64,000 nt of DNA from Frankiales bacterium (GTDB taxonomy: Bacteria > Actinomycetota > Actinomycetes > Mycobacteriales > SCTD01). Below the pieces are notes generated by a model. That model did no database searches, was not told where the DNA came from, and was given only the letters and a program-made list of their open reading frames with translations. A program made the translations under genes and the position numbers. How positions within the stretch are numbered: position 1 is the stretch's first letter; each line of letters begins with the position of its first letter. Of the stretch, positions 18,242-39,783 are shown piece by piece. The stretch spans positions 44,507 to 108,506 of the forward strand of contig JAODNA010000049.1 of NCBI GenBank assembly GCA_025465135.1, read 5' to 3'.

Positions 18242-18774
18242 CGCGCTTGCTCCTGTTCAGCTAAGGACAGCAAGTCGACGAGGCGCGCTCGCGCCCGGAC
18301 AAGCTGCGTCTTGACGGTGTTCTCCGACCTCCCGAGCTCCCGGGCGACCTCAGCAACGGGCAGGTCGAGCAGGTGGTGCAGCACCACCACCTGCCGCTGT
18401 TCACTGGACAGCTGGGCGACCGCTCTGACGACGTCGACGGCGGCCTCCCCCGGAGCAGGCGCCGGCGCCGGTGGGCCTTCTTGCTCAGCGATACGTCGTC
18501 GTACTCGCCGGCGGCGATGGCCGTCGACGGCCAGGTTCATTGCGACGCGCCGCACCCACGCTTCGGGGTTGTCGCACGAACGGACCGTCCGCCAGCGCGC
18601 CGCCGCGCGGGCGAACGCCTCCTGAAGGCAGTCCTGCGCGTCCTGGAGGTCTCCTGTTGCGAGCACGAGCGCGGGCAGCAGGCGTCGGCTGGAGACCCCG
18701 TAGAACTCATCGAAGTCCAACGCCGGTCTGTCCACACCTCGCACACGCGCCAGGTGCTTCCCAGGTTTCTCCAC
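18238..18774 (-). CDS. ECF sigma factor 1 (sigma-70 family, subfamily B)
   Basis: Region 2 is DFDEFY...DAQDCLQEAFARAAARWRTV...NPEAWVRRVAMNLAVD. Region 4 is QRQVVVLHHLLDLPVAEVARELGRSENTVKTQLVRARARL. The true start is possibly GTG 18735 (see the promoter feature). Confidence 0.9.
   Translation of the reverse strand: MEKPGKHLARVRGVDRPALDFDEFYGVSSRRLLPALVLATGDLQDAQDCLQEAFARAAARWRTVRSCDNPEAWVRRVAMNLAVDGHRRRRVRRRIAEQEGPPAPAPAPGEAAVDVVRAVAQLSSEQRQVVVLHHLLDLPVAEVARELGRSENTVKTQLVRARARLVDLLSLAEQEQAR
18743..18767 (-). promoter_or_regulatory. ECF-type promoter candidate for sigma-1 (AACC-N17-GTGT)
   Basis: On the reverse strand, GAAACC (AACC 18767-18764) is followed by 17 nt and GTGT (18746-18743). Seven nt further is the in-frame GTG 18735 (VDRPALDFDEFY...). 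The element lies inside the longest-ORF version of sigma-1, which argues for the shorter, leaderless start. Confidence 0.4.
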
Positions 18775-18859
18775 GTGCCGAATATTCTCGCCTCGACGCT
18801 TGTTCGCCGAGTCAGCCGGCAGTGCCGGGAGCCGCCGTCCGGTGACCTGGCTCCGGACG

Positions 18860-20170
18860 TCAGTGCGTCAAGGGCACCACGATCTGGCTGTTCCCAGTGA
18901 CGCGTACTGCTGTCGATGCGTCGGGCACGAGGGCTGCGTCGCGACCGGCGCGGATCCACGCTCCGGTGCCGATGCGGTACTCCAGGGTGCGCTCGAAGGA
19001 GGCGACGATCCACCCGTCCGAGTCTGGAAGGCGGATCGCGACCGGCAGGGGCGACGCGGGATCGACCTCGCCGCCCGGGACGAATACCTGCCCGGAGCCA
19101 GTTCCGAGGACGGCGTACAGGTGGCTCGGGTCTTCCTCGAGCTGGTGCTCACCGACGACCACCTGTCGGCCGCTCGGCGTCGTGCCGTAGGCGTACCAGA
19201 GGCTGAAGCCCTCCGAGAACGGAGTGCCACCGCTTTGATGCGCGCGCACGGCAGCGTTGAAGCGTGCCCGCAGCTGACCGGCGTCCGCCTGCCAAGATCC
19301 GCCTAGCGGCATCACCGTCTCACCCTGCCCACCGGGGTTGATCCAATCGAGCCGCTTCATTGCTGGCCGCGTGTCCACGACTCCCCCCAACACGCCTCGC
19401 ACGTCGTCCGGGCTGGTGACCGGGAGCAGGCCTAGGTGCACGGAAAGCCCCGGAACTGTTCCCGGTGGAAGCTCGAAGAGCGCGACGCCGTCGTGCTGGG
19501 ACATCGGCGCATAGGTGCGGGATACAGACCCGTCCTTGCCGTACACCCAGCCGAACGAGATGCCGAGCGGCTTGCCGGTATCCAGCGCAGCAACCACGTG
19601 CCGGCCGCTGTCGACGTACCAGGCGATGTCCGACTGGACGCCGGGTGCGGGGTAGGTGTCGGCGACGACTGTGGGCTGGCCGTCCGCCCCGGGACCAACG
19701 AAGCCGAGTAGCTGGTAGACCCCCTCGTGCTCGAGCGAGATGTCGGCGTGGTGGTGCAAGAAGGCGTCCTGACTGACCACAGCTGCCGGCCCCGCGGGGG
19801 TGGTGCCTGCCCAAACGACCTTCGCCTGGCCCCTCATGTCTTCGAAGATGCCTCGCCCAGCGTTGAGCGACGTGGCGTGGCTCGCTCCCCACGCCTGCAG
19901 GACCGAGGCGCGGTACGTGGCATCCGAGGACAGATCGCCGTGGGTCTGACCGTCGAACAGCGCGCCGGCGAACACGACGCGATCCGGGCCCTGACGCGAC
20001 AAGGCGCGCGGTGCTGCGAATCCGACCAGCGCCAGCACGAGTGCTAGGGAGCCAGCCGATGCGCGGCGGCGGCGGATGCGCCGCTGACCGCCGCGGCGCG
20101 TCTGGGTCAGCAGTGCCGGGGACGGCTCGACGTCGGTCGTCGCCAGTTCAAGGAGCTTGGTCAGTTCCAT
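18860..20170 (-). CDS. ECF cassette 2 partner P2: single-pass membrane protein (putative anti-sigma/sensor)
   Basis: ATG 20170 shares 1 nt with the sigma-2 TGA; a TTG at 20176 is an alternative start. The N-terminus is MELTKLLELATTDV...GGQRRIRRRRA followed by the TM SAGSLALVLALVGFAA, then an ectodomain of about 390 aa with no known motif. Confidence 0.8.
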   Translation of the reverse strand: MELTKLLELATTDVEPSPALLTQTRRGGQRRIRRRRASAGSLALVLALVGFAAPRALSRQGPDRVVFAGALFDGQTHGDLSSDATYRASVLQAWGASHATSLNAGRGIFEDMRGQAKVVWAGTTPAGPAAVVSQDAFLHHHADISLEHEGVYQLLGFVGPGADGQPTVVADTYPAPGVQSDIAWYVDSGRHVVAALDTGKPLGISFGWVYGKDGSVSRTYAPMSQHDGVALFELPPGTVPGLSVHLGLLPVTSPDDVRGVLGGVVDTRPAMKRLDWINPGGQGETVMPLGGSWQADAGQLRARFNAAVRAHQSGGTPFSEGFSLWYAYGTTPSGRQVVVGEHQLEEDPSHLYAVLGTGSGQVFVPGGEVDPASPLPVAIRLPDSDGWIVASFERTLEYRIGTGAWIRAGRDAALVPDASTAVRVTGNSQIVVPLTH

Positions 20171-20649
20171 CAGCAAGGTTCCTCAGCAAAGGCGAGTAGT
20201 GCTCGTAGGCGAGGCAGCGCGCGGGCCGTCTGGCTCTTGACCGTGCCGGTGGAGCAACCGAGCGCTGCGGCGGTCTGGTCGATCGACAGGTCATCGAAAA
20301 ACCGGAGGATGACGACGGCTCGCTGACCCGGAGGCAGCGTGGCGAGGGCCGCGAGGACGTCGCGACATGCGGACTCGGGCTCGGTGCCGGCGGCGGCGTC
20401 GCGCTCCCCGAGCGGCACTTCGGCGTGGCGACGGCGGGTGCGCCAGCGATTGGTGGCGGCGTGCGCGATTGCTCGCCTCGCGTACGCGTGCGGGTCGTCG
20501 ATCCGGGACCAGCGTGCGTACATGCGCTCCAGGACGTCTTGCAGGAGGTCCTCTGCGGTACCGCGGTCGCCGACCAGCAGGAAGGCGGTGCGGAGCAAGC
20601 GACGGGACGCTCCTAGGACGAAAACGTCGAAGCCCTCGTCCCTCGCCAC
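20170..20649 (-). CDS. ECF sigma factor 2 (subfamily A, actinobacterial SigE-like type)
   Basis: Region 2 is FDVFVLGASRRLLRTAFLLVGDRGTAEDLLQDVLERMYARWSRIDDPHAYARRA. Region 4 is GQRAVVILRFFDDLSIDQTAAALGCSTGTVKSQTARALPRLR. Confidence 0.9.
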   Translation of the reverse strand: MARDEGFDVFVLGASRRLLRTAFLLVGDRGTAEDLLQDVLERMYARWSRIDDPHAYARRAIAHAATNRWRTRRRHAEVPLGERDAAAGTEPESACRDVLAALATLPPGQRAVVILRFFDDLSIDQTAAALGCSTGTVKSQTARALPRLRALLAFAEEPC

Positions 20650-20680
20650 GTGCCTGCCTCTCTTCGGTCCCGAGGGAAGG

Positions 20681-20704
20681 ACACCGCAGGCGGGCTCCTA
20701 GGTT
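20681..20704 (-). promoter_or_regulatory. ECF-type promoter candidate for sigma-2 (AACC-N16-GTGT)
   Basis: The reverse strand reads GACAACC-taggagcccgcctgcg-GTGTCC. A 31-nt leader containing AAGAGAGG precedes GTG 20649. Confidence 0.4.
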
Positions 20705-20708
20705 GTCA

Positions 20709-20722
20709 CGCCCTATAGGGCG
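20709..20722. promoter_or_regulatory. 14-bp perfect palindrome CGCCCTATAGGGCG in the sigma-2/sigma-3 divergent region
   Basis: It is self-complementary over all 14 nt and has an AT core in very GC-rich surroundings. It lies 5 nt upstream of the sigma-2 candidate -35. Confidence 0.3.
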
Positions 20723-20867
20723 AGAGACCGGGACACGAGCAGCACGAGCGTGGAGCTGGTGGCGCACGGCCCACGACACGATGAAGCGGACGACTCCTCC
20801 CGACGATGCAAGGGCCGTCCGGTGCGTCCCGCGGGGGCGCCTGCGCCAAATACTTCGATCGAACGAG

Positions 20868-20892
20868 AACCGCTGGGCGCTCGACAGCGTGT
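20868..20892 (+). promoter_or_regulatory. ECF-type promoter candidate for sigma-3 (AACC-N17-GTGT)
   Basis: The sequence is GAGAACC-gctgggcgctcgacagc-GTGTGT. A 42-nt leader precedes GTG 20935. Confidence 0.4.
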
Positions 20893-20934
20893 GTTGGGCG
20901 TGGCTGCTGCACGCGGCGGCCGGAACGGGACGGT

Positions 20935-21411
20935 GTGGACGACTTCGAAAGCTTCTACGTGGGCAGCTATCGGCGGCTGTTCCACGACCTCCTGCTGGTG
21001 ACCGCCGACCAGGCCGATACCGAAGACGTCCTGCAGGACGCCTACACGCGGGCGGCTGTTCGCTGGCGCAGGGTGCGCTCGCTGGACAACCCTGAGGCGT
21101 GGGTACGACGGGTCGCGATCAACCGAAGCCTCGACCTGCACCGGCGGCACAGCCGGCAGCGTCGCGCCTACGCCAGGCTGGCGCCAGCCGTCGAGCACCA
21201 GGACGACCTGAGTCTCGAGGTCCTCGACGCCCTGCGGCAGCTGCTCCCAGAGCTTCGCCAGGTCGTTGTGCTGCACCACCTGCTCGGCGAGACCGTCGAG
21301 TCCATCGCGGCCATCGTCGGTCGCCCGACCGGGACCGTGAAGGGTCAGCTCGTCCGCGGCCGTGCCGCGCTGCACGCTGCCCTGAGTCCCGCTGCCGAGG
21401 AGCTGTCGTGA
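20935..21411 (+). CDS. ECF sigma factor 3 (subfamily B)
   Basis: Lies in ORF 20806..21411. The in-frame GTG 20935 gives VDDFESFYVGSYRRLFHDLLLVTADQADTEDVLQDAYTRAAVRWRRV...NPEAWVRRVAINRSLD. Region 4 is LRQVVVLHHLLGETVESIAAIVGRPTGTVKGQLVRGRAAL. Confidence 0.9.
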   Translation: MDDFESFYVGSYRRLFHDLLLVTADQADTEDVLQDAYTRAAVRWRRVRSLDNPEAWVRRVAINRSLDLHRRHSRQRRAYARLAPAVEHQDDLSLEVLDALRQLLPELRQVVVLHHLLGETVESIAAIVGRPTGTVKGQLVRGRAALHAALSPAAEELS

Positions 21412-23082: not shown

Positions 23083-23095
23083 CTCCCACGCCTTC

Positions 23096-24081: not shown

Positions 24082-24106
24082 AACCGATCGGGCGGCTCGC
24101 GCGTTT
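24082..24106 (+). promoter_or_regulatory. ECF-type promoter candidate for sigma-4 (AACC-N17-GTTT)
   Basis: The sequence is CTCAACC-gatcgggcggctcgcgc-GTTTGATGAG, with 8 nt before GTG 24115. It shares the 11-mer TTGATGAGGTG with the sigma-8 promoter/start region. Confidence 0.4.
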
Positions 24107-24114
24107 GATGAGGT

Positions 24115-24654
24115 GTGGGCATTGACGGGAAGGGCACGAGCGCGGACTTCGATGCGTTCGTGGCCAGCCGCGCGACCGCACTGCTTCGATACGGCGTTCT
24201 GCTGTTCGGCAACCAGGGCGATGCTGAAGACGCGCTCCAGGACGGGCTGGAGAAGACGTGGCGTCGATGGGACCGCCTGTCCGGGGCCGCGCCCGAGGCC
24301 TACGTCCGCCAGTGCCTGTTGAACGCGGCACGAGACTCGGCGAGGCGTCGCCGGGTACGCCTGAACGCCGCTGCCCGCCTCTTCACCAGGCCTCCTGAGT
24401 CCGTGACCACCGCCGTGGATGGCCGGGACGAGTTGCTGCAGGCCCTCGGGGCGTTACCCCCTCGGCAACGCGCAGTGCTGCTCCTGCGCTACTGGCTGGA
24501 CATGGCCGAGGCCGATGTCGCCCGCGAGCTCGGCTGCTCGGTCGGGACGGTGAAGAGCCAGGCAGCTCGCGGGCTAGCCAGGCTGCGCAGCACCGACGCG
24601 CGGCTGCCTGAGGCAACCGCGCGCTCGACATCACGGACCGGAGAGACGGCATGA
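24115..24654 (+). CDS. ECF sigma factor 4 (subfamily A)
   Basis: Region 2 is DFDAFVASRATALLRYGVLLFGNQGDAEDALQDGLEKTWRRWDRL...PEAYVRQCLLNAARD. Region 4 is RQRAVLLLRYWLDMAEADVARELGCSVGTVKSQAARGLARLR. Confidence 0.9.
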   Translation: MGIDGKGTSADFDAFVASRATALLRYGVLLFGNQGDAEDALQDGLEKTWRRWDRLSGAAPEAYVRQCLLNAARDSARRRRVRLNAAARLFTRPPESVTTAVDGRDELLQALGALPPRQRAVLLLRYWLDMAEADVARELGCSVGTVKSQAARGLARLRSTDARLPEATARSTSRTGETA

Positions 24655-25691
24655 CCGACACCGAGCTCATCGCGCGCTTCCGCCAGGCCTGCGAGGACGC
24701 CACCGACGCGGTGGAGGCACCGTCGCTGTTCGTCCCGGCGCGAGCTCGGCGTGCCCGGCGCACCCGGTGGGGAGCGCCGTTGGCGAGTGCGGTTCTCGCC
24801 GGCGGCGCCGCCTTGGGAGCGTTCATGCTCCAGCAGCAGCTCGGTGCGACGGCGCACCGATCTGACGCGACCGTGCAGTTCGCCGGGGTGTGCGACAGCC
24901 CGTACAACGTGCCGGCCCGCCCCGGCCACGTGATCGCGAAGGGGTTCCGGGTCGGCGACATCGTCGTTGCACCCGCCGGCGGCACTCCCGTCCCCTCCGA
25001 GGCGACGGTGCGGGCCCAGCTCCGGAAGGCAGATCTTCCGGTCGGCGCGCAACTGAGGTGGGCCTCGATCATCGAACCCGCCCTGTCCCCCACCGCCACG
25101 GACCACTGGCTCCTGACCAGCTGCGGGCAACCGGGCGCCTTCCTGCGGCCGACAGCCACGGACCCGTCGCCGATGTCTCGGATCTACCAGACCGCCACCT
25201 ACAGCGTCGTCGGTCCGACAGGGCAGCCCGGACAGCCGTTCACGGTCCAGCTGAACCAGCCGCAGTGCCCGCATCGCATCGGCACTGCCGGGGGACCCAG
25301 CAACGGGAAGCCAAGCTCAGCCCGCCTGGTGGACGGGCACGTGACCGCTGGTCTGTTCTGCCGCTACTACTCGGTCCTTCCGGGCCCCGGAAACAAGTAC
25401 CCCGGCACCGAGCACGGTGCCGCTGGGATCCCCCCGGATCTGGCTGCCGCGATGGCCAAGGCGATCAACGCACTTCCACCTGCCAGTGGGGTGGCCATGA
25501 GCTGTCCGAACGACATCGGCGTGACCGACGTCCTGTCCTTCCAGACCTCGAACGGACCGCAGCAGGTCTGGGTCTCGGCCACCGGCTGCAACGTCTTCAA
25601 GAACGGAGCCCGGGTCGCGATCGGGAGTGGGCCGGCGATGGCGACCTACCTCGAGCTCCGGGCTCGCCTCGTCCTGCCTAGCGTCCGGTGA
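24651..25691 (+). CDS. ECF cassette 4 partner P4: single-pass membrane protein
   Basis: ATGA overlap at 24651-24654. The N-terminus is MTDTELIARFRQACEDA...ARARRARRTRW followed by the TM GAPLASAVLAGGAALGAFML, then a Cys-containing ectodomain of about 285 aa. Confidence 0.8.
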   Translation: MTDTELIARFRQACEDATDAVEAPSLFVPARARRARRTRWGAPLASAVLAGGAALGAFMLQQQLGATAHRSDATVQFAGVCDSPYNVPARPGHVIAKGFRVGDIVVAPAGGTPVPSEATVRAQLRKADLPVGAQLRWASIIEPALSPTATDHWLLTSCGQPGAFLRPTATDPSPMSRIYQTATYSVVGPTGQPGQPFTVQLNQPQCPHRIGTAGGPSNGKPSSARLVDGHVTAGLFCRYYSVLPGPGNKYPGTEHGAAGIPPDLAAAMAKAINALPPASGVAMSCPNDIGVTDVLSFQTSNGPQQVWVSATGCNVFKNGARVAIGSGPAMATYLELRARLVLPSVR

Positions 25692-25713: not shown

Positions 25714-27819
25714 CTACAGCGATCGGGTCTGGCGGCGCTCATGGTGGGGGCCGCTGTCGCGGAAGACGATCTCCACGACGGCGAAGTGCCCGTTGCTGTT
25801 GCCGGAGAAGTGGAACGTGGCGGGATAGGAGTGCTTGGTTCCGCTCACGCACTGCGGTGTGCAGTCGTTCTCCGACAGGACCCCCTCCGCCGTCGCCTCG
25901 GTCTGACCCCACGACGTCCACGTCAGGCTCTCGGCGATGCTGCTGCCGTCCGCGCAGGCGAGCGCGACGTACGACGGGCGGATCGGCCGGTCGCTGCAGG
26001 TGGGGTCGAAGGTGGTGGGTTGGCCAGCGGATTGTCGCGTCGTGCTCACCTGGTCCGGCTCCACGGGCGACACCACGATGCGGCTCCCCGGATCGCCGGG
26101 CCCGCAGTAGCCCAGCCGGCTCGGCGTGGCGGGCAAGGGGACCTGCAGGGGGAACGCGCGGCCGGGAAGCGTGACGTCGACGGCCGCCGCGAGCGCCTTG
26201 TCGCCAAGGTCGCAGCGGTACTTGCCGAACGCGACATAGGCAAGGCCCCCGACCGGAACAGTCACTTCCCCAGCCGGGCCGGCGGTGATGGTCTGGCTGC
26301 CGGTGTGCTCGATGGAGAACGCGAGCGGCTTGCCGCGAAGGTCGAGCAGGGTGAGCTCGGGGTAGCCGTCGAGCACGCACGGCCCTGGACCGATGTTGGT
26401 GATGGCGAGCAGGACGCCACTCTCACCGCCGGCTCCGCCCGCGGCCGGGCTGGCGGAGATGGCGAGCTTGGATCGCTCGCAAGGGCCGGGCGAGGGCAGT
26501 GGCGGCGGCGGACGGGTGGAACGGGCAACGGAATAGGCGGTCCACCGGCTCGTTCCGGTGCCCGACCAGACGGCGCCGGCGCCGTCGGCCTGGCCAGGGG
26601 CGACGCCGCGACCGTCCAGGAGGACCTGCACGGGTCCGAAGAAGTCAGAGTTGTCGGTCACCGGCACCCAGGAGTGGCCGCCGTCCGCGGTCGCGGAGAC
26701 CTCGCCGCGCGACGCGCTGACGTAGGCCGTCGAGGCGCTCGACGCGGCGATGGAGGCGGCGTAGCCGCGGTCGGGCAACAGCGCCGCCGGCCGGAAGGGC
26801 TGCCCGGTTCCCGACGACACGAAGACGCGCTTGCGCTGAAGTCCCGCGGACCCCTCTTGCGTGCACAGGACCCACACGGCCCCTGTCTGCGTGGTGCTGA
26901 TGTCGGCGGTGCTGTACGGACCTGCGCCGTCCGGCCCCTGGCACGGTGCGGCCTCGCGGGTCCACGTGCTGCCGTCATCGGCGGAGGTGAAGATCGCGTC
27001 CGGCAGGAGCTGGGCCGCGCCTACCGGCTGGCGGACCGCCACTGCGGCACGCCCTCCTGCCGCCCGCGACACGACGACTGCGCCACCAGCATGCGAGGTG
27101 GGCAACGGGAGGGTGGCGAACGATGCCGGGTCCTGTCCGGCCTTCCCGCCGCGTAGCCCCAGCGCGCAGCCGTCGGCGCCGGGCCGGGCCGGGCAGTCCA
27201 TCGTCGCGATCCAGACCGAGTCGGAGTCAGGAGCGACGTCGAGATCGACGAGCTGACCGGCCAGCTGATCCCGGCTCGTCCAGGTCGCGCCGTCGTCGTT
27301 GGAGTAGGCCAGGCCGTTGCCCCAGACGTAGACGCTGTGCTGACCTGCCACCGAGACGCGACGGACATCGGGTGCGTGAGCGCCCTCGGGAAGAACGCGT
27401 TCAGTACCGGGGTCGAGGGTCCGGCCGCGGTCGGAGGTGAGACGCAGCAGCTGCCGGCAGGGACTGACGTCGGCCAGGCAGGTGCCGACGACGGCGGCTC
27501 CCGTGCCGTCGGGGCGCAGGGCGATCGCGGACACGAACGCTGGGGGTTGCGGCGCCGGAGACGGGGAGTCGGTCGGCTCGCCGGTCGACGTCGCGGCCGG
27601 AACCGGCGCCGCGGTGCGGGCAGCGTTGCGAGTGGCCGCCGTCACTCCCCCAGCCACCGCGATCACGGCGAGCACCGAGGCCGCCGCGGCCAGCGCTGTT
27701 CTGCGCCGGCGCGCGCGCCGGAGCCGACCATCGAGCCAGCTCCCGTCGGTGTGGACCGCGCGGTGGCGTTCGCCCAGATCGGCCAGCAGTGCAGCCAGGC
27801 GACGCTCCTCAGGCGTCAT
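25714..27819 (-). CDS. ECF cassette 5 partner P5: single-pass membrane protein with BNR/Asp-box beta-propeller + DUF4232-like + C-terminal Cys-rich domain
   Basis: It overlaps sigma-5 by 11 nt. The N-terminus is MTPEERRLAALLADLGERH...RRARRRRT followed by a TM. Asp-boxes are SNDDGATW, SADDGSTW and TADGGHSW. The DUF4232-like stretch is CERSKLAISASPAAGGAGGESGVLLAITNIGPGPCVLDGYPELTLLD. Confidence 0.85.
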   Translation of the reverse strand: MTPEERRLAALLADLGERHRAVHTDGSWLDGRLRRARRRRTALAAAASVLAVIAVAGGVTAATRNAARTAAPVPAATSTGEPTDSPSPAPQPPAFVSAIALRPDGTGAAVVGTCLADVSPCRQLLRLTSDRGRTLDPGTERVLPEGAHAPDVRRVSVAGQHSVYVWGNGLAYSNDDGATWTSRDQLAGQLVDLDVAPDSDSVWIATMDCPARPGADGCALGLRGGKAGQDPASFATLPLPTSHAGGAVVVSRAAGGRAAVAVRQPVGAAQLLPDAIFTSADDGSTWTREAAPCQGPDGAGPYSTADISTTQTGAVWVLCTQEGSAGLQRKRVFVSSGTGQPFRPAALLPDRGYAASIAASSASTAYVSASRGEVSATADGGHSWVPVTDNSDFFGPVQVLLDGRGVAPGQADGAGAVWSGTGTSRWTAYSVARSTRPPPPLPSPGPCERSKLAISASPAAGGAGGESGVLLAITNIGPGPCVLDGYPELTLLDLRGKPLAFSIEHTGSQTITAGPAGEVTVPVGGLAYVAFGKYRCDLGDKALAAAVDVTLPGRAFPLQVPLPATPSRLGYCGPGDPGSRIVVSPVEPDQVSTTRQSAGQPTTFDPTCSDRPIRPSYVALACADGSSIAESLTWTSWGQTEATAEGVLSENDCTPQCVSGTKHSYPATFHFSGNSNGHFAVVEIVFRDSGPHHERRQTRSL

Positions 27820-28336
27820 GGCGCACCTCTTGGGCGTGATCAGGATCGGACAGGAGGCCGCTTTGCCGGAGCGCTTCGAGCGCCCGGTTGGCTCTGCTCT
27901 TGACCGTCCCCAGCGAGCAGTCGAGCGCGTCGGCGGTCTCGCGCTCGGAGAGCTGCTGGTAGTAGCGCAACACGACCACAGCCCGCTGCTGGTACGGCAG
28001 CGCGCGAAGAGCCCGAGCGAGGGCGTCCTGGGTCGCCATACGGTCGGCGTCGTCGGGCCCGGCAGCCTCCGGCAGCCGGGCGGTCGGCACCTCGCCGCTC
28101 CATCTGCGCTGCCCCCAGCGCGCCGCCAAGCGGACCATGATCATGCGCGTGTAGGCCTCCGCGGCTCCTTTGTCCGCAAGGCGGTCCCAGCGCATGGCGG
28201 TCTTGGTCAGCGCGGCCTGCACGAGGTCCTCCCCTGCTGCTGTATCCCCGACGAGCAGCGAGCCGGCGCGCACCAAGGCCGGGTAGCGGCCGCGCATGAA
28301 CTCCGCGAACTCGTCATCGGCCCGGTGCACCCTCAC
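27809..28336 (-). CDS. ECF sigma factor 5 (subfamily A)
   Basis: Region 2 is EFAEFMRGRYPALVRAGSLLVGDTAAGEDLVQAALTKTAMRWDRL. Region 4 is QQRAVVVLRYYQQLSERETADALDCSLGTVKSRANRALEALR. Confidence 0.9.
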   Translation of the reverse strand: MRVHRADDEFAEFMRGRYPALVRAGSLLVGDTAAGEDLVQAALTKTAMRWDRLADKGAAEAYTRMIMVRLAARWGQRRWSGEVPTARLPEAAGPDDADRMATQDALARALRALPYQQRAVVVLRYYQQLSERETADALDCSLGTVKSRANRALEALRQSGLLSDPDHAQEVRHDA

Positions 28337-28355: not shown

Positions 28356-28378
28356 AGACATCAGCGGCCGGGAAGGTT
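28356..28378 (-). promoter_or_regulatory. ECF-type promoter candidate for sigma-5 (GGAACC-N15-GTCT)
   Basis: The reverse strand reads CGGAACC-ttcccggccgctgat-GTCTCC. A 19-nt purine-rich leader precedes GTG 28336. Confidence 0.45.
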
Positions 28379-28596: not shown

Positions 28597-29379
28597 CTAG
28601 CCGCGTCCGGTGACGAGGCCGGTCTCCAACACCTGGACGTTCGCCAATGCATCGAGGCAGGAGAAGACGCGCTGCTGTTGGGCTTGGGTTCCCGTGACGG
28701 TGACGCCGCGGGTGAGACGGTCGTTGGGCTCCTGCCCCGTTGCCCGAGCTCCGGGCAAGGAGAGGCAGTGCCTGAATGCCTCGTGTCGAGCCGGGGCGTC
28801 GGGGTCGACGCCCCGCTCATAGGCCGCGACGAAGTGGACTCGCACGCCGACGCCGAACACCGCCGCTACCAGTTGGGGAGTGACTTGGCGGTAGGTCAGG
28901 GTGCGATTGTTGCGGATGAAACCGCAGCCGGTGTTCACGTTGAAGACCTCAGTCGCGAGGCTGGCAGAGCGCACCGTGATGTCCGCATTGCGATACGGCC
29001 CCGGATTCTGGCAGGGCCAGGTCCTCTCCACCGGGATCGCCGGACTGTCGTTGGCGGCAGCCAGAAAGGCGGCCAGCCGAGGCTTGGTCAGGTCCTCGCA
29101 AGTCGTGGGGCTTCCGGCGCGACACACGGTCGCGCTCGTTGCTCGTTCGCTCACGAACGGCTGAGACACGACGCCCGGCTGCGAGGAGTCACCTCCCGTC
29201 GGCAAGGCGAGGTACAGCGCCGCTCCGGACGCGACCAAGAGGAATCCCGCCGTCCCGGTCATGGCCACACGACGGCGACGGCGCCTGTCAGCGGCTCGTT
29301 CGAGGACGGAGAACGGCGGGGCGGGCAGGCTGCGTACCGGTGCAGCGAGCTCGTTGAGCAGCGTGGACAGGTCGGTCAT
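28597..29379 (-). CDS. ECF cassette 6 partner P6: single-pass membrane protein with Cys-rich ectodomain
   Basis: Lies in ORF 28597..29925. ATG 29379 forms an ATGA overlap with the sigma-6 stop. The N-terminus is MTDLSTLLNELAAPVRS...AADRRRRRRV followed by the TM AMTGTAGFLLVASGAALYLAL. Confidence 0.8.
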   Translation of the reverse strand: MTDLSTLLNELAAPVRSLPAPPFSVLERAADRRRRRRVAMTGTAGFLLVASGAALYLALPTGGDSSQPGVVSQPFVSERATSATVCRAGSPTTCEDLTKPRLAAFLAAANDSPAIPVERTWPCQNPGPYRNADITVRSASLATEVFNVNTGCGFIRNNRTLTYRQVTPQLVAAVFGVGVRVHFVAAYERGVDPDAPARHEAFRHCLSLPGARATGQEPNDRLTRGVTVTGTQAQQQRVFSCLDALANVQVLETGLVTGRG

Positions 29380-29897
29380 GGTTGCTCCTCCGTCAACAGC
29401 GGTGCGAGCGCGGCTCTCGCTCTGTTCAGCCGGGATTTCACGGTGCCCATAGGAACTCTGAGCTCCTGAGCGACCCTTTCCAGCGGCAGACCGACCAGGT
29501 GGTGCAGCACCACCACTTGTCGCTGAGCCACGGGCAGCGCTGCGAGAGCGCGGGCGACGTCCATCGCCAACAGCGACGGCTCGGGGCTCGTTGTCGCCCC
29601 CTCTATGCGCCCCAACGCGGCGCGGGCCCGCCGGAGCTGTCGAAATCGGTTGCTCAGCAGGCGAAAGGCCACCTGCCGCACCCATGCTTCGGGGTCCTGA
29701 TATCGAGAGATGGCCTGCCAGCGCGGCACCAGCCGGATGAAGGCCTCCTGCACGACCTCTTCCGCCTCGCGGTGGTCGCCGGCGGCGACGGTAAGAACGG
29801 CCAGCAACCGCGAGTAGGTAGCCGCGTAGAAGTCGGCAAGCGCCGTGTGGGACGCCTCCGACTCCGGTGGCGCGGTCGCGTCCTGCTTCACGATCAC
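29376..29897 (-). CDS. ECF sigma factor 6 (subfamily B)
   Basis: Region 2 is ADFYAATYSRLLAVLTVAAGDHREAEEVVQEAFIRLVPRWQAI...DPEAWVRQVAFRLL. Region 4 is QRQVVVLHHLVGLPLERVAQELRVPMGTVKSRLNRARAAL. Confidence 0.9.
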   Translation of the reverse strand: MIVKQDATAPPESEASHTALADFYAATYSRLLAVLTVAAGDHREAEEVVQEAFIRLVPRWQAISRYQDPEAWVRQVAFRLLSNRFRQLRRARAALGRIEGATTSPEPSLLAMDVARALAALPVAQRQVVVLHHLVGLPLERVAQELRVPMGTVKSRLNRARAALAPLLTEEQP

Positions 29898-29904: not shown

Positions 29905-29929
29905 ACACCCCGAAGCGGGTGCCAAGGTT
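29905..29929 (-). promoter_or_regulatory. ECF-type promoter candidate for sigma-6 (GGGAACC-N17-GTGT)
   Basis: The reverse strand reads GGGAACC-ttggcacccgcttcggg-GTGTTACCTAG, followed directly by GTG 29897 (7 nt after GTGT, so leaderless-like). Confidence 0.45.
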
Positions 29930-31126: not shown

Positions 31127-31135
31127 CTCACGGCG

Positions 31136-32347: not shown

Positions 32348-33247
32348 CTAGAAGGGCCCGTTCACGACGAGCAGCCGGATGTCCTCCGGCGACGTGGTCA
32401 AGGCGACGCCTGCGTTGAGCTGCGCGGCCGTGTTCGTCGTTCCCCAGACGTCTCCGGCGAGCGCCCAGATGGTTGACCGCGAGGCGGCCGCGCCCGAAAT
32501 GACCGTGGAGCCGGGGGCGCAGCCGAGGCCGACCGGCCTGGTTCCGCCTGTCAGCTGGGCGCTCCCTTGGCCGGTCTGAGCGGTCGAGAGGGATTGGCAG
32601 GGCACGGCCGCGACCGCGAGGCTGCCCCCCGACCCGCCCGCTGCGGTGGCGTGCGTGAAGTGCTCGATGGTCTGCGAGTTGCTCGAGACGTAGAGGTCGG
32701 CGACGTCGGCGGCCCGCAGCAGCTGCAGCCGTCGATGGATCAGGCCGCCGTGCCACCCGCTGCCGCGCGCTGGCCGGCTGACCTGAGTGAGCCGGTCGTC
32801 GGCGACCAGGCCGATCACGAGTCGCCGGGCATCTGTCCTCGAGGCGGGAATGGTCACGTCAACGAAGACCAGGTTGCCGGCCCGGCTCTCGCAGACTGTC
32901 TCAGGCTGGACGGGCAGGGTCGTGCATCCTGCTGGGGATCCGGTGGCGTTGGTCTGTGGCGCGAAGACGCCAGCCGGTTGTACGACGAGGTCTGGGCGTT
33001 CGATCGGTTGCCCCGCCCGGTCGAGCACCCAGAACGCCACCGGAGCTGTCGAGTAGCCGGCTGTCCCGACCTGGATGTGCAGCACGAGCGGGCCATCCGC
33101 AGTTCCAGCCAAGCGGCTGAACGAGTACACCCGGGAAACCGTATGTATCCGAGCGGCATCTGAGGACGGCGACGCCGTCGCGGGACCTGCTGCGAGGCAG
33201 CAACATGCTGCGACAACGGCTAGGGTCGCCCGCGACCAAACCCCCAT
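32348..33247 (-). CDS. Secreted hypothetical protein
   Basis: Lies in ORF 32348..33328. ATG 33247 gives the signal peptide MGVWSRATLAVVAACCCLAAGPATA. No known motif. Confidence 0.65.
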   Translation of the reverse strand: MGVWSRATLAVVAACCCLAAGPATASPSSDAARIHTVSRVYSFSRLAGTADGPLVLHIQVGTAGYSTAPVAFWVLDRAGQPIERPDLVVQPAGVFAPQTNATGSPAGCTTLPVQPETVCESRAGNLVFVDVTIPASRTDARRLVIGLVADDRLTQVSRPARGSGWHGGLIHRRLQLLRAADVADLYVSSNSQTIEHFTHATAAGGSGGSLAVAAVPCQSLSTAQTGQGSAQLTGGTRPVGLGCAPGSTVISGAAASRSTIWALAGDVWGTTNTAAQLNAGVALTTSPEDIRLLVVNGPF

Positions 33248-35103: not shown

Positions 35104-35610
35104 TCAGCAGCGGGTGGCCGCCTTGTCCACTTCTTGGCTGCCCGCCTGTAGGTGCACCTGAAGTCGTTGTCGGGCCCGGTGGATGCGTACTCGCACAGTG
35201 CCCGGGCTCCTGCCGAGGACAGTCGCGATCTCCGCGGGCGTGAGCTGGTCGTAGACCATGAGCTCGATGAGCTCACGGTCGCTCGGCGACAGCTTGCTGA
35301 GTAGTTCGCTGACGTGCAGGTCGTCGAGCGAAGGCTCGTATTGCTCCACCACCTGCTCTCGTAGGCGTTCAGCGAGGGAGTTCTGCACCTGCTTACCCCG
35401 GCGGTGTGCCGCGAGCACTTTTCGGGCGACCCCGAAGAGCCAGAGGCGTGGGTTGTCGTGGGACACCCCACGGTGCCGCCAGGCCACGACGAAGACGTCA
35501 GACAGCAGATCCGCTGCATCCGCTGGCTGCTGGACTCGTCGCAAGAAGTAGCGCAGCACATCATCTCGGTTAGCTTCGTACAGCTGGGCGAACGGCTCGT
35601 CGTCGGTCAC
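35104..35610 (-). CDS. ECF sigma factor 7 (distinct subfamily)
   Basis: Lies in ORF 35104..35820. GTG 35610 forms a GTGA overlap with the stop of P7. Region 2 is FAQLYEANRDDVLRYFLRRV...AADLLSDVFVVAWRHR. Region 4 is SDRELIELMVYDQLTPAEIATVLGRSPGTVRVRIHRARQRL. Confidence 0.85.
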   Translation of the reverse strand: MTDDEPFAQLYEANRDDVLRYFLRRVQQPADAADLLSDVFVVAWRHRGVSHDNPRLWLFGVARKVLAAHRRGKQVQNSLAERLREQVVEQYEPSLDDLHVSELLSKLSPSDRELIELMVYDQLTPAEIATVLGRSPGTVRVRIHRARQRLQVHLQAGSQEVDKAATRC

Positions 35611-36266
35611 GAGGCCGGCCACGGCCGGGGGTCGGGGCAGTTGATGTCGACGTATTGCTGCAGCGGCGCGGGGTCGCCCTGCTGGGCTTGTTCGACCAGC
35701 CGGAGGTTGTAGGAGCGCAGGTTGATCCGGCGAGCGAGGTCTGAGTCCGCCAAGCGCCTCATGTGCTCGAGCGCGCCGGGGTCGGTCGTCGACGTCCGCG
35801 CCCACGAGCAGAAGGCCCACGACAGCCCCGAGCCCCGGACGCCGGTGACCTGCATGACGTAGCCGCGACCGCGCAGCTCAGGGGCGGTATCGGCGTCCAT
35901 GCGACGAGGGTCGAGTAGCCCCAGGTACATCTGCGCGGAGTAGCCCGGCGCATAGTCGAAACCCGACGTGTAGCGCAGGGCGACGTCCCGGAAGTCGGGA
36001 GCATTGAGGTCTAGGTATTCGCTCGTGTCGTTCTCGGTCGCGCCCGGCAGGCCGAACAGACCGGTGTGGCTGCCGCCGGTCGCTACCGCTACGCCGCCAA
36101 TGCCCATGACAGCCGCGCTGACCGCGCCGATGGCGACGAAACGACGGCGGCGGCTCGACGCAGGGCGGATCTGCCTCACGGCAGCGAGGAGTCCCTCGTA
36201 GCCCTCCTCGCAGCTCAGCTCGACGGGACTCAGGCGGGCACGGAGCTCGTCCACTACATCGGTCAT
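35607..36266 (-). CDS. ECF cassette 7 partner P7: single-pass membrane protein, encoded UPSTREAM of its sigma
   Basis: The N-terminus is MTDVVDELRARLSPVEL...PASSRRRRF followed by the TM VAIGAVSAAVMGIGGVAVA, then an ectodomain of about 155 aa. Confidence 0.75.
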   Translation of the reverse strand: MTDVVDELRARLSPVELSCEEGYEGLLAAVRQIRPASSRRRRFVAIGAVSAAVMGIGGVAVATGGSHTGLFGLPGATENDTSEYLDLNAPDFRDVALRYTSGFDYAPGYSAQMYLGLLDPRRMDADTAPELRGRGYVMQVTGVRGSGLSWAFCSWARTSTTDPGALEHMRRLADSDLARRINLRSYNLRLVEQAQQGDPAPLQQYVDINCPDPRPWPAS

Positions 36267-36449: not shown

Positions 36450-36773
36450 ATGCGCAGGGGGCTGGTGTCGCTTGGTGTGGCCCTCGGGCTGAGCCTCGGC
36501 ACTGCGGCGCTCTTGCTCGTCCCTAGCCGCGTGCACGTGGCGAGCAGCACGATGCCCCAACTGGTGGGGCAGACCCAGGTGCAGACGGCCCCGGCCCAGA
36601 CACTCGACTGCGGCTCGGTTATCAGCCCTGGACCACAGTGGAGCTCAGAAGGAGGCACCTGTCAGGCAGTGATCAGCGGGCGGCGATCGGATGCGCTGGC
36701 CGTCGGCGTCCTTGCCTCGTTGGCCGTCACTACGGCCGCGATCCGGCTCGCTGTACCCGGACGACGACGCTAG
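36450..36773 (+). CDS. Small hypothetical protein with N- and C-terminal hydrophobic segments
   Basis: The N-terminus is MRRGLVSLGVALGLSLGTAALLLV and the C-terminus is ALAVGVLASLAVTTAAIRLAVPGRRR. No domain. Confidence 0.45.
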   Translation: MRRGLVSLGVALGLSLGTAALLLVPSRVHVASSTMPQLVGQTQVQTAPAQTLDCGSVISPGPQWSSEGGTCQAVISGRRSDALAVGVLASLAVTTAAIRLAVPGRRR

Positions 36774-36831
36774 TCGCGCGCTTCCGGGAGAACGGCTCGA
36801 TGCGACTCGCCGACAACCGGCGCTGCAGTTG

Positions 36832-37491
36832 CTAGCTCGACCTCACGCAGTTCCGTGCACCGATGGTCGTCGTGGCGCCAGGCTGCTGCGTGCGGTCGAC
36901 GGTCGTCCCTGCGTACAACCCGGTGCTCTGGGTCGCAAGAGTCCCCACCCCCGTCACGGTATCCACGCTGATCTTGCTGATCTTGTCTCCCGCGCGTGTG
37001 TGCCCGATGAGATCCCGCGGCAGCACGATACGCACTTCGTTGGTGGTCGGATCGAACTCACCAGTCACCGGGATCGTGGCGGTGAAGCCGGGGGCGGCCT
37101 GCTTCTCCGCGAAGTCTCCGGCAACCCAGAACTGAAGCCCGTCGATCGCCCTGGCCGCGGTGGCCGCGAACCCCCCGCCGCGAAAGGTGAAGTAAACGAC
37201 CCATTGGTCGAGCCGGGGACCGGCATCGACGGCTGTTCCCAGCCCGGCTACCCGCACGACGAGGGTGAGGTTCCGGGCCCCGGACGCAACGTCCGCCGAC
37301 AGAACGTCGAGGGCAGGGTCGTTCGGCGTCGCAGACGGCACCCTGCTGGACAGAGAAGCGTCACCCGCGGGGTCGGTAACGAGTCGACAGGGCACGACGC
37401 CAGCAGGCGCTGCCGTCGCGCTTCCCGCCATGAGCAGGCCAGCCGTTACTGCCGCAGCCGGCGCGACGCGCAACAGCTTGGTCCACCGCAC
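36832..37491 (-). CDS. Secreted hypothetical protein
   Basis: Lies in ORF 36832..37629. GTG 37491 gives VRWTKLLRVAPAAAVTAGLLMAGSATAAPA (signal peptide). The body is beta-rich. Confidence 0.65.
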   Translation of the reverse strand: MRWTKLLRVAPAAAVTAGLLMAGSATAAPAGVVPCRLVTDPAGDASLSSRVPSATPNDPALDVLSADVASGARNLTLVVRVAGLGTAVDAGPRLDQWVVYFTFRGGGFAATAARAIDGLQFWVAGDFAEKQAAPGFTATIPVTGEFDPTTNEVRIVLPRDLIGHTRAGDKISKISVDTVTGVGTLATQSTGLYAGTTVDRTQQPGATTTIGARNCVRSS

Positions 37492-37677
37492 GGCCGTCCC
37501 CCCGGGTACGCAGTCGGATAGCGATTCGACAGCGGATCGGCGAATCCTGCACCGGCCGTTCGTGCCGCTCGGCGGGAGGCAGCCTCGACTTGCTGGGCGC
37601 CGGGCAGACTTCTGCTCGGACCGGTGCATACAGCGGAGAGGGCGCGACGGAGGGTGCCGCGGTTGGCTCGTCCGCGA

Positions 37678-37956
37678 TTAGCGGCCGAGCTGGGTAGGCG
37701 AGCACTCGCCCTCCTCCCCACGTACAGATCCGCTCCCGCTGGAAGGACCTTGGTCGTGCCATTCGGACCAGGCCGCCGCAGCCGCCATGGAGCTGACCGC
37801 AGCTGCGCTCGCGACGTCCGATGCATCGAAGAAGTGCACGCCGAGCAGGTGCTCGTTGATGACGATCAACAGCGACCCAACGAACGCATAGATCGGGACC
37901 GGCCAAGGCAGCGCAAACAAGATGGCCGAGGTACAGCGGCGTCTCCGTTCCTCCAC
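37678..37956 (-). CDS. Possible small membrane protein
   Basis: 92-aa ORF with one hydrophobic segment (AILFALPWPVPIYAFVGSLLIVI). Third-position G/C is high by eye and the stop is TAA. It sits in an otherwise unexplained 550-bp divergent gap. Confidence 0.3.
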   Translation of the reverse strand: MEERRRRCTSAILFALPWPVPIYAFVGSLLIVINEHLLGVHFFDASDVASAAAVSSMAAAAAWSEWHDQGPSSGSGSVRGEEGECSPTQLGR

Positions 37957-38043
37957 GGATGCAAGGACGCGGGGCTTGCCAGGTCGGTTCCGTGGGTGGA
38001 ACTACTCAGGTCCGCATGGCCCGGTCGCATCACGATTGCGGAC

Positions 38044-38385
38044 ATGGCCACTCCTCGGATCTCCGATGTCACGCCCCGCTTCACGTCATTGCTGCTTGCC
38101 GCCGGACCGCTCCTGTCACTGCTGCTGGCGCTGCCGCTGCTGCAGGCGGCCGCTCGTCACGATCGGCACTGGCGGACGACCACGAACGGTGTCGTCGACC
38201 ATCGAGTTGGCGCCGGTCTCTTCGTGCTCTACGGCCTCGCCGCAGCGACGCCGACATTCGCCACGGCCGCGTTCGGACCGCGCCATCGGGTGGGGGCAGC
38301 CTGGATGGCGGCGTGTGTCCTGGGACTGGCCGTACTCTGCGAGCTCGTCGTCTCCGTCGCCCCTGAGCCCTGGTTCACCTTCTAA
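38044..38385 (+). CDS. Small hypothetical membrane protein (3-4 TM)
   Basis: Lies in ORF 37624..38385. ATG 38044 gives MATPRISDVTPRFTSLLLAAGPLLSLLLALPLL, followed by GLFVLYGLAAATPTF and AAWMAACVLGLAVLCELVV. Confidence 0.55.
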   Translation: MATPRISDVTPRFTSLLLAAGPLLSLLLALPLLQAAARHDRHWRTTTNGVVDHRVGAGLFVLYGLAAATPTFATAAFGPRHRVGAAWMAACVLGLAVLCELVVSVAPEPWFTF

Positions 38386-38520
38386 CGAAGCGAAGAGCGA
38401 CGTCGCGCGACACAGCTCCTCAGGGCCCAGGAGGGTCCGTGACGGCGGCTAGGCGCGCAGGATGGCGATGCTCTGCGTCAGGACGGACCGTTGACCGCTA
38501 GACGACGGCGCCGGGCCGCT

Positions 38521-38545
38521 CGCGGACACAGCGGTCGTGTCCGCG
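38521..38545 (+). promoter_or_regulatory. Perfect 9-bp inverted repeat (7-nt spacer) at the arr start region
   Basis: CGCGGACAC-agcggtc-GTGTCCGCG. The right arm begins with the longest-ORF GTG (38537). It lies 22 nt upstream of the alternative GTG 38567. Confidence 0.35.
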
Positions 38546-39040
38546 GCGCGTGCGACGATCCTCTTCGTGCCAGACGACTTCGATCCGCCGCCGCCCGCGA
38601 CACTGGCAGACCACGGCCATGTGGGTGGGCCGTTCCTCCACGGCACCAAGGTCCCCTTCGCGCCTGGCGAGCTCGTTCTGCCCAGGCGACCCTCGCACTT
38701 CCGTCCCGCCCGCCCGCTGGAGCACGTCTACTTCACGACGCGAAGCGAGACAGCCGTTTGGGGTGCAGAGCTCGCAGCCGCGCTCGCCCCCGACGGCGTG
38801 GACGGGGTTTCGATGCCCCGCATCTACAAGGTCGAGCCGCTCGGCCCGTTCGAGGACGACCCGAACGTCACGGACCGCCGGTTCCCCGGAAACCCGACCC
38901 GGTCCTACAGATCCCGCGAGCCACTCCGCGTCCTCGCTGAGGTCTCGGAGTGGACCGGGCACACCGACGACGAACTACAGCGGATGCTCACGTCGCTGGC
39001 CGGGCTGCGCGCTCAGGGCCTGGACCTCGTCCAGGACTAG
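38537..39040 (+). CDS. arr: NAD(+)-rifampin ADP-ribosyltransferase (Arr)
   Basis: Near-colinear with my recollection of M. smegmatis Arr. Matching stretches are GPFLHGTK, HVYFT, AVWGAELAA, YKVEPLGPFEDDPNVTDRRFPGNPTRSYRSREPLRV and LAGLRAQGL. The start is GTG 38537 or, closer to Arr-ms length, GTG 38567. Confidence 0.92.
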   Translation: MSAARATILFVPDDFDPPPPATLADHGHVGGPFLHGTKVPFAPGELVLPRRPSHFRPARPLEHVYFTTRSETAVWGAELAAALAPDGVDGVSMPRIYKVEPLGPFEDDPNVTDRRFPGNPTRSYRSREPLRVLAEVSEWTGHTDDELQRMLTSLAGLRAQGLDLVQD

Positions 39041-39259
39041 GCCACGAGCAGTCCTCTGGCAGCTCGTCAGGGTCGCTTTCGTGCTCCTGTTCGTAGTACA
39101 AGGCTCCATGCCATCAAACGCCATGACTACTTGATGGTCACTTCGATGGCGGTCGGGACTGCTGCCTTGATTTGGTCCGGCGTTCTGTCCGCGAGGTCCA
39201 GGCTCCGCCGCGGGTAGGTGCCTCGCAGCTCCCCCGGCACTCGAGAACGATACGGACGG

Positions 39260-39282
39260 AACCAACCGGCCCTCTGTGGTGT
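39260..39282 (+). promoter_or_regulatory. ECF-type promoter candidate for sigma-8 (GGAACC-N15-GTGT)
   Basis: The sequence is CGGAACC-aaccggccctctgtg-GTGTCTTGATGAG, followed by GTG 39292 (9 nt after GTGT). Confidence 0.45.
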
Positions 39283-39291
39283 CTTGATGAG

Positions 39292-39783
39292 GTGCCGATC
39301 GCCTTCGAGGAGTACGTCGCTGCGCGCTTCCCGGCGCTGCGACGGCTCGCCTATCTGCTGACCGGTGACTGGACCGAGGCAGAGGACCTCGTCCAGGACG
39401 CGCTCGTGCGCTGCGAGCGACGCTGGTCCGGGATCGCCACTGACGACCCGCACGCCTACGTGCGGCGTTCGGTGGTGAACGGTGCTGCGAACTGGCGGCG
39501 ACGCCGACGGATCGAGCTTCCACTCGACGAGGGCGGCGCCGTTGCTGACCACACGCCCGCCACGGATGAGCGTCTGGTCCTGCTGGAGGCACTGCGGCGC
39601 CTGCCTGTCGACCAGCGCCAGGTCCTCGCTCTGCGCTTCTTCGAGCAACTCAGCGAAGCCGAGACCGCCCATGCGCTCGACATCGCGCCGGGCACGGTCA
39701 AGAGCCGTACTTCTCGCGGCTTGGCGGCGCTGCGGGAGGCCGGTCTCACGGCCGGGTCGAAACGGATGGAGATCACGTCATGA
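39292..39783 (+). CDS. ECF sigma factor 8 (subfamily A)
   Basis: Lies in ORF 39172..39783. GTG 39292 gives VPIAFEEYVAARFPALRRLAYLLTGDWTEAEDLVQDALVRCERRWSGI...DPHAYVRRSVVN. Region 4 is DQRQVLALRFFEQLSEAETAHALDIAPGTVKSRTSRGLAALR. Confidence 0.9.
   Translation: MPIAFEEYVAARFPALRRLAYLLTGDWTEAEDLVQDALVRCERRWSGIATDDPHAYVRRSVVNGAANWRRRRRIELPLDEGGAVADHTPATDERLVLLEALRRLPVDQRQVLALRFFEQLSEAETAHALDIAPGTVKSRTSRGLAALREAGLTAGSKRMEITS

Follow-up and report, generated by a model that had tools for sequence, protein, structure and literature searches.

Extracytoplasmic function (ECF) sigma factors usually autoregulate, a property that has been used to find the promoters they recognize (PMC7826278; PMC7776599). 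We consider here seven candidate promoters of this kind in a 64,000-nucleotide stretch, hereafter the window, of a Frankiales metagenome-assembled genome (MAG; GenBank assembly GCA_025465135.1, contig JAODNA010000049.1, forward-strand positions 44,507 to 108,506; 70% G+C), where a two-box element, AACC-N15-17-GT(G/C/T)T, precedes seven of eight clustered ECF sigma genes (s1 to s8). Among described systems, sigma-E of Streptomyces coelicolor (ECF39) has a validated consensus of AAC(C/G)-N16-17-CGTCT (Tran et al. 2019, PMC6767563), and Table 1 of that study lists dozens of nnnAACC-N16-CGTCT sites, some of them 4–7 bp from the start codon. In S. coelicolor itself, the CseBC two-component system drives sigE, which is not among the targets of sigma-E, and sigma-E lacks an anti-sigma factor (PMC6767563). 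In the ECF classification, ECF38, ECF39, ECF51, and ECF222 group together in a clade with a common type of anti-sigma (Casas-Pastor et al. 2021, PMC7826278), and leaderless transcripts occur among predicted ECF promoters as a feature specific to Actinobacteria (Todor et al. 2020, PMC7776599).

The window sites have the same two-box layout and spacing as sigma-E targets, which in the notation used here read AACC-N17-GTCT; s5 and s8 carry the exact GTCT, the seven window sigmas have their best match in the NCBIfam family of sigma-E (TIGR02983), and the sigma-E targets lying 4–7 bp from a start codon offer a precedent for the leaderless-type promoters of the window. Unlike the sigma-E sites, five of the seven have G at the third -10 position (counting s8 in the N15 reading discussed below), and unlike sigE, the window sigmas each have their own promoter copy and an apparently co-transcribed membrane partner. 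No cse-like or two-component genes are adjacent in the window, in contrast with ECF39 proper (SigE-CseABC, with lipoprotein, response regulator, and sensor kinase). Autoregulated ECF operons and the ECF38-39-51-222 clade are similar to the window cassettes in having a group-specific promoter of their own, a co-transcribed single-pass membrane regulator, an actinobacterial origin, and many paralogues, but the window partners are without a Pfam anti-sigma domain, and seven cassettes in 24 kb are denser than usual, arrays of two or three being common in the Streptosporangiaceae loci examined. As in the leaderless ECF transcripts of Todor et al., the promoter can lie against the start codon with a 5′ untranslated region (UTR) of about 0 nt; in that survey, however, leaderless promoters were enriched for initiating A (AUG), whereas here GTG is used in nearly all orthologues, the leaderless mRNA would be that of the sigma gene itself, and the geometry is kept in three paralogue lineages.

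The patterns detected are best read as ordinary ECF positive autoregulation, the window very probably containing seven SigE-family sigma/membrane-partner cassettes each with its own ECF-type promoter. Judged by its sequence, the arrangement corresponds to the autoregulatory promoter that would be expected in a known ECF clade, repeated in clustered paralogous cassettes, and as such a well-known principle rather than a new one.

Sigma cassettes and the shared candidate promoter element

A six-frame search found exactly eight ECF sigma genes in the window, all at 18–40 kb, and the window proteins correspond to NCBI entries of one 120-kb contig. Seven SigE-family two-gene cassettes, each a sigma gene followed by its partner gene (d1 to d6 and d8), lie between 17.3 and 41.5 kb, and the eighth sigma gene, s7, follows a gene here called u7. 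The features are as follows, with coordinates counted from the first letter of the window; MTD or VTD gives the N-terminal residues, R and A the basic run, and TM a transmembrane helix.

18743..18767, minus strand: s1 promoter, (GAGA)AACC-N17-GTGT, 7 nt 5′ of GTG 18735
18238..18735, minus strand: s1, SigE-family ECF sigma, probably leaderless; 165 aa if the short start is used
17336..18241, minus strand: d1, partner of s1, putative anti-sigma; MTD...RRRR, one TM helix, extracytoplasmic domain; ATGA overlap with s1; no Pfam match
20681..20704, minus strand: s2 promoter, (GAC)AACC-N16-GTGT, 31 nt 5′ of GTG 20649, with a Shine-Dalgarno-like GAGAGG
20170..20649, minus strand: s2, SigE-family ECF sigma, 159 aa
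18860..20170, minus strand: d2, partner of s2, putative anti-sigma of RRRR-TM type; TGATG overlap
20868..20892, plus strand: s3 promoter, (GAG)AACC-N17-GTGT, 42 nt 5′ of GTG 20935
20935..21411, plus strand: s3, SigE-family-like ECF sigma, 158 aa
21408..22517, plus strand: d3, partner of s3, putative anti-sigma; VTD...RRRR-TM; GTGA overlap
24082..24106, plus strand: s4 promoter, (CTC)AACC-N17-GTTT, 8 nt 5′ of GTG 24115
24115..24654, plus strand: s4, SigE-family ECF sigma, 179 aa, its mRNA likely leaderless or with no more than 2 nt before the start
24651..25691, plus strand: d4, partner of s4, putative anti-sigma; MTD...RRARR-TM; ATGA overlap
28356..28378, minus strand: s5 promoter candidate, the weakest site, (CGG)AACC-N15-GTCT, 19 nt 5′ of GTG 28336
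27809..28336, minus strand: s5, SigE-family ECF sigma, 175 aa (173 aa from GTG 28330, the form picked by the gene caller on a Logan contig)
25714..27819, minus strand: d5, partner of s5, of RRRR-TM type, with three motifs resembling Asp boxes and a DUF4232 domain
29905..29929, minus strand: s6 promoter, (GGG)AACC-N17-GTGT, then TACCTAG, then GTG 29897
29376..29897, minus strand: s6, SigE-family-like ECF sigma, 173 aa, probably leaderless
28597..29379, minus strand: d6, partner of s6, putative anti-sigma; MTD...RRRRRR-TM; ATGA overlap
39260..39284, plus strand: s8 promoter, (CGG)AACC-N17-GTCT, then TGATGAG, then GTG 39292
39292..39783, plus strand: s8, SigE-family ECF sigma, 163 aa, probably leaderless
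39780..41450, plus strand: d8, partner of s8; MTD...RRRR-TM and a long extracytoplasmic part, with a cyclophilin peptidyl-prolyl isomerase (PPIase; PF00160) at the C-terminus; ATGA overlap
35104..35610, minus strand: s7, ECF sigma of a different group, without the element; second gene after u7, GTGA overlap

All eight sigmas scored above the cut-off of TIGR02937, and the called genes carry Pfam Sigma70_r2 and Sigma70_r4_2, in keeping with ECF (group 4) factors, which have only sigma-2 and sigma-4 domains in about 160–200 aa. The top NCBIfam match for s1–s6 and s8 was TIGR02983 (SigE-fam_strep, the actinobacterial SigE family), whose curated cut-off of 141.55 bits was exceeded by s2 (154.5), s4 (163.3), s5 (174.3), and s8 (163.0) but not by s1 (141.4, 0.15 short), s3 (115.6), or s6 (120.9). 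The seven fall into two subfamilies, s1/s3/s6 and s2/s4/s5/s8, with s7 belonging to another ECF kind. In a PDB search the closest solved structures were remote, namely SigE and SigL of M. tuberculosis (E ~1e-10).

An element of this form upstream of seven sigma genes, and its absence from s7, had been proposed in a preliminary description of this DNA, and the positions, strands, and distances to in-frame starts were all reproduced here, with s7 again lacking the element. Over both strands (128 kb) the pattern AACC-N15-17-GT(G/C/T)T matched 10 times, compared with 5.7 expected from shuffles, so that the total is unremarkable but the placement is not: seven of the 10 matches lie on the right strand at most 70 nt upstream of sigma starts, and the Poisson probability of seven falling within the eight 100-nt segments 5′ of sigma starts is 1.4e-14. 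Because the motif had been defined after inspection, every 4-mer/3-wide-gap/4-mer dyad was enumerated over the eight sigma upstream regions (458,752 dyads). The sole dyad present in at least four of the eight regions was AACC-N15-17-GTGT, found in five, and those five are every occurrence of it in the 128 kb (P = 3.4e-11, approximately 1.5e-5 corrected), so the significance of the motif held under an unbiased test. The three matches away from sigma genes, at 6144 inside a long gene, at 33238 over the start codon of a probable lipoprotein gene, and at 36598–36620 on the minus strand 330 nt upstream of u7, are consistent with chance background.

The general ECF promoter layout that had been suggested for these sites was supported, as they match the sigma-E consensus, precede TIGR02983-family genes, keep their boxes in homologues, and have no rival signal. 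They agree with the ECF-type pattern of a -35 box containing AAC, a spacer of approximately 16–17 bp, and a short -10 box with (C)GT, all on the coding strand, except that the s5 spacer is 2 bp short. No sigma-70-type consensus promoter was found by a promoter scan of the region, and no Rfam family by an Rfam scan. The s5 site is the weakest because its N15 spacer is unusually short. The s8 element is present as described earlier, except that the original parsing as N15-GTGT with 9 nt to the start gives way to AACC-N17-GTCT with 7 nt to GTG, since that form is kept in four orthologues. The leader lengths given previously are correct as distances but run from the box to the start codon, true 5′ UTRs being about 7 nt shorter. 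One claim did not survive: the 11-mer shared by s4 and s8 across the -10/start region, TTGATGAGGTG, is not significant, since in approximately 21% of draws a random set of eight 70-nt segments has some common word of 11 nt or more.

Conservation in other genomes and metagenomes

A search with s4, taking one genome per species, gave 80 loci with about 50% identity, mostly from Streptosporangiaceae. The strict pattern AACC-N15-17-GTBT occurred at only 3 of these 80. The explanation that the element is simply not conserved among s4 homologues was considered and rejected, as the boxes are present with G as the fourth -10 base (GTTG) or with an N18 spacer, and the relaxed pattern AACC-N15-18-GT[CGT] was found at 65 of the 80 loci compared with a background of 0.06 per 160 nt. 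Approximately 60 Streptosporangiaceae homologues have CTCAACC-N15-GCGTTG upstream, those of Streptomyces, Actinacidiphila, and Actinocrinis have G(G/A)CAACC-N18-GTCT, and, in support of the s2 promoter, the Actinocrinis homologues L077 and L078 have GACAACC-N18-GTCT. Going by sequence, the CTCAACC-N15-GCGTTT of s4 is the same element as the CTCAACC-N15-GCGTTG of its homologues. A metagenome search with s1 gave homologues at 41–51% identity in 27 non-redundant loci, 18 of them with AACC-N17-GT[GCT] at most 110 nt from the start, against a background of 0.02. In every case the boxes and their spacing persist with a different spacer sequence between them, which is the look of a functional promoter contacted by protein, as opposed to duplicated DNA or coding sequence.

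Closer orthologues keep not only the boxes but their distance to the start codon. In the s6 group (76% identity for L082–84, 72% for L085, 67% for L086–88), GGAACC-N17-GTGT-TACCTnn-(G/A)TG is present in L082, L085, and L086, with the start in frame at 7 nt. All four s8 orthologues (L169–L172, 74–81% identity) have GGAACC-N17-GTCT-TG(A/G)nnnn-GTG followed three codons past the GTG by a conserved F-E-(E/D)-Y. In the s1 group, GTGAAACC-N17-GTG(T/A)-N7-GTG is found in L173 (86%), L175 (72%), and L176 (70%), and a second sigma gene in L174 also has the N17/N7 geometry. Across these three orthologue groups the boxes, the N17 spacing, and the N7 start are kept while the spacer and the 7-nt stretch diverge.

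There were about a dozen s4 homologues with no AACC/GT element (L016, L020, L023, L034, L038, L040, L042–L044, L047, L057, and L063). Such loci, from Actinoallomurus and related MAGs, carry a GC-rich hairpin, GCGCGGGTGGCCC...GGGCCACCCGC, followed by GGACGGAGCACCTTGGCGCGTCGAGATGACGAG, which looks like a different expression mode within the same sigma lineage.

Start codons and probable leaderless transcripts

The shorter s1 start at 18735, favored in the preliminary description because the element lies inside the longest open reading frame (ORF), was supported by comparison: L173, L175, and L176 keep a GTG at exactly 7 nt, and L176 has an in-frame TGA directly before it. Orthologues of s1 are mostly called at 160–166 aa, whereas the NCBI s1 is 178 aa from 18774, overlapping the -35 box, and is probably 13 aa too long. 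Public gene calls of L082, L085, L173, and L174 (1586) likewise begin within the -35 region, at one of its GTG or ATG codons (GTGGAACC, ATGGAACC, GTGGAGAAACC). Gene callers often pick such codons, which explains the 178-aa s1 and the 184-aa L082 and L085 calls. Such miscalled starts add at least 13 spurious residues, for s1 those encoded by 18736–18774 on the minus strand.

Four of the sigma genes had been thought to be leaderless. For s1, s6, and s8 the conserved box-to-start distance of N7 (kept in 3 of 4, 3 of 3, and 4 of 4 orthologues, respectively) supports mRNAs that are leaderless or have leaders of 0–2 nt, and for s4, with a distance of N8, a leaderless mRNA is likely. In-frame stops directly 5′ of the start, a TAG immediately before GTG 29897 in s6 and a TGA at 24109–24111, one codon upstream of the GTG, in s4, exclude longer ORFs; s4 has no other canonical in-frame start ahead of its conserved FDAF motif, and in s4 and s6 the 7–8 nt that remain leave no room for a usable Shine-Dalgarno sequence. 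In s3 and s8 the GC pattern of the extension upstream of the start is that of non-coding DNA (for the upstream part of the long s3 ORF, GC at second codon positions is 0.79), the NCBI and most JGI calls of s8 are 162–164 aa, and in alignments to the TIGR02983 profile the short sigma starts begin at profile positions 2–7.

Other GTG codons occur at the same distance. A GTG out of frame with s3 stands 7 nt past its -10 box and begins an ORF of 33 codons that runs over the s3 start (20900–21001, plus strand). L174 likewise (around 100–130) has an out-of-frame GTG at N7, the first codon of a 9-codon ORF whose end spans the start of the sigma gene. Both may be upstream ORFs on leaderless mRNAs, or may simply reflect a preferred G start point. 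A further site with the family geometry, CGGAACC-N17-GTCC-N8-GTG at 37954–37992 on the minus strand, opens an ORF of 92 aa (37678–37956, minus strand; GC at third codon positions 0.76) encoding VEERRRR and then a hydrophobic helix. It could be a leaderless member of the regulon, but chance is an equally good explanation, given that the window has 19 copies of AACC-N17-GT[GCT] where base composition predicts roughly 16.

Proposed mechanism and alternative explanations

In the mechanism we propose, each cassette promoter would comprise a -35 box nnAACC, an unconstrained spacer usually of 17 bp, and a -10 box GT(G/C/T)T. RNA polymerase with the cognate sigma, or perhaps with a closely paralogous one, would contact AAC(C) by way of sigma-4 and GTn by way of sigma-2 and begin transcription approximately 7–8 nt past the -10 box, and co-transcription of sigma and anti-sigma would create positive feedback that the anti-sigma restrains until an envelope or extracellular signal frees the sigma. 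For s1, s6, s8, and probably s4 the start point would be the G of the GTG, giving a leaderless mRNA translated without a Shine-Dalgarno sequence, whereas s2, s3, and s5 would have short leaders. That the seven cassettes are autoregulated is the standard inference for ECFs.

Several observations weigh against parts of this reading. No partner has a Pfam anti-sigma domain (ASDI, zf-HC2, RskA, and similar) at E < 0.01. The founding member, sigma-E, is neither autoregulated nor provided with an anti-sigma, so autoregulation is not universal in the clade. The s5 spacer of N15 is 2 bp under the family norm and that of s2 is N16. The s4 homologues at about 50% identity all have leaders of approximately 30 nt with strong Shine-Dalgarno sequences, so that the absence of a leader in s4 would have arisen specifically in its lineage. 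One s1 orthologue, L174 (76%), has the same promoter, but its start codon follows a GAGGG sequence and stands 20 nt downstream.

Alternatively, the sites could be genuine ECF promoters that respond not to their own sigmas but to one master sigma, encoded in this cluster or elsewhere, in a cascade, or to all paralogues as a shared regulon. Five of the seven sites have exactly AACC and GTGT (s8 in its N15 reading), S. coelicolor sigE is itself under another regulator, and related S. coelicolor ECFs also read sigma-E promoters. Cross-recognition between cassettes, which the preliminary description had raised, is therefore possible, most plausibly among s1, s3, s6, and s2, all with AACC/GTGT. Against this, each orthologue group has its own third -10 base, namely G in s1 and s6 (GTG), C in s8 (GTC), T in s4 homologues (GTT), and A in a further paralogue group found beside s4 homologues (GTA), a pattern pointing to cassettes that are partly insulated from one another and not to a single common regulon. 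The base in question, which we take to be the one flipped into the sigma-2 pocket in structures of ECF sigma-2 with the -10 element, also tracks the type of sigma-2 loop between the RW and PEAY/W motifs in 118 sigma/promoter pairs, a correlation that is confounded by phylogeny and only suggestive. Moreover, loci in other genomes, among them L086 and L169–L171, carry the element though their neighboring called genes include no second SigE-family cassette, and ECFs require near-consensus promoters, with paralogues of the same genome thought to have distinct regulons (PMC7776599). On balance a master sigma or shared regulon seems improbable. Similarly doubtful is a cross-wired network in which the -35 box is common and one -10 base matched to the sigma-2 loop would set the reader, such that s1, s3, s6, and s2 co-activate one another while s8 and s5 (GTC) and s4 (GTT) are insulated, and in which fusion of the transcription start to the GTG is a conserved and selected trait; this would free sigma synthesis from initiation driven by a Shine-Dalgarno sequence, which could matter under stresses favoring leaderless translation.

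Autoregulation of the individual cassettes also has to be weighed against two readings in which the shared sequence is no promoter at all. The boxes might be part of a coding N-terminal extension of longer sigma ORFs, kept for the encoded peptide, as there is an open frame from an upstream GTG or ATG in s1, L173, L175, L082, and L085, and NCBI and other gene callers took upstream starts (178 aa for s1, 184 aa in several orthologues). This is very unlikely, because in-frame stops stand directly before the start in s4, s6, and L176, the L174 box is in another frame than its gene, only the two boxes are kept while the 17-nt spacer changes freely and non-synonymously, and in many homologues unrelated leaders have these same boxes 45–80 nt ahead of them; the non-coding GC pattern of the extensions and the beginning of the family profile at the short starts point the same way. 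As to a chance or post hoc pattern of no function in GC-rich intergenic DNA, the motif was indeed defined after the sequences had been viewed, the total of 10 is not significantly above shuffle expectation, and looser matches are about as frequent as base composition predicts. The placement of seven of the 10 strict matches (P ~1e-14), the recovery of this dyad alone by unbiased enumeration, and its independent retention in other genomes and metagenomes have already refuted chance.

If the promoters are as proposed, they have practical implications. They fix start codons that annotation pipelines get wrong, AACC-N17-GTnT would be a usable promoter model for a large uncharacterized actinobacterial ECF branch in uncultured Frankiales, and seven paralogous sigma/promoter pairs differing mainly at one -10 base would constitute a natural set for work on ECF promoter orthogonality or for genetic switches.

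Arrays in Streptosporangiaceae

In Streptosporangiaceae (L002–L068), s4 homologues occur in conserved arrays of two to three sigma cassettes, at about 7.5 kb, 10 kb, and 11.5–12.6 kb of each locus. The upstream paralogue has CTTCC...GGTGGAATCT with an ATG 8–10 nt later, the central one has CTCAACC-N15-GCGTTG and a 30-nt leader, and the downstream one has GGGCAACC-N16-CGTAC with an ATG 9 nt later. From these distinct signatures, neighboring paralogues in such arrays have clearly different -10 boxes.

Membrane partners and the s7 locus

In six cassettes the stop codon of the sigma gene and the start codon of its partner are merged in ATGA, GTGA, or TGATG, and in s5/d5 the overlap is 11 nt, so that each sigma is coupled to its partner in translation. 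The seven partners are single-pass membrane proteins with a common layout of a short cytoplasmic N-terminus of MTD and approximately 30 residues, an Arg run acting as stop-transfer segment, one TM helix, and a variable outer domain, and are on this basis putative anti-sigmas of their sigmas. Partners are kept in orthologous loci, with a 260-aa d6-type partner in L082 and L085 and the PPIase-containing partner of s8 in three orthologous loci (L169–L171).

At the s7 locus the gene order is reversed, with the partner-like gene first and the sigma second. The s7 start is probably GTG 35610, in a GTGA overlap with the stop of u7 (35607–36266, minus strand), and the 219-aa product of u7 resembles the partners of the other window sigmas in its MTD...RRRR-TM layout. 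Upstream of u7 there is no AACC/GT element. A hidden or decayed sigma gene near s7 that might own the 36598–36620 match was searched for, and there was none there.

The 701-aa d5 has SNDDGATW, SADDGSTW, and TADGGHSW before DUF4232, and these three Asp-box-like motifs suggest a beta-propeller-like outer domain. The 556-aa d8 is a single-pass membrane protein ending in a cyclophilin-type PPIase, and may be an anti-sigma-like protein fused to an extracytoplasmic PPIase, which could hint at the signal that is sensed.

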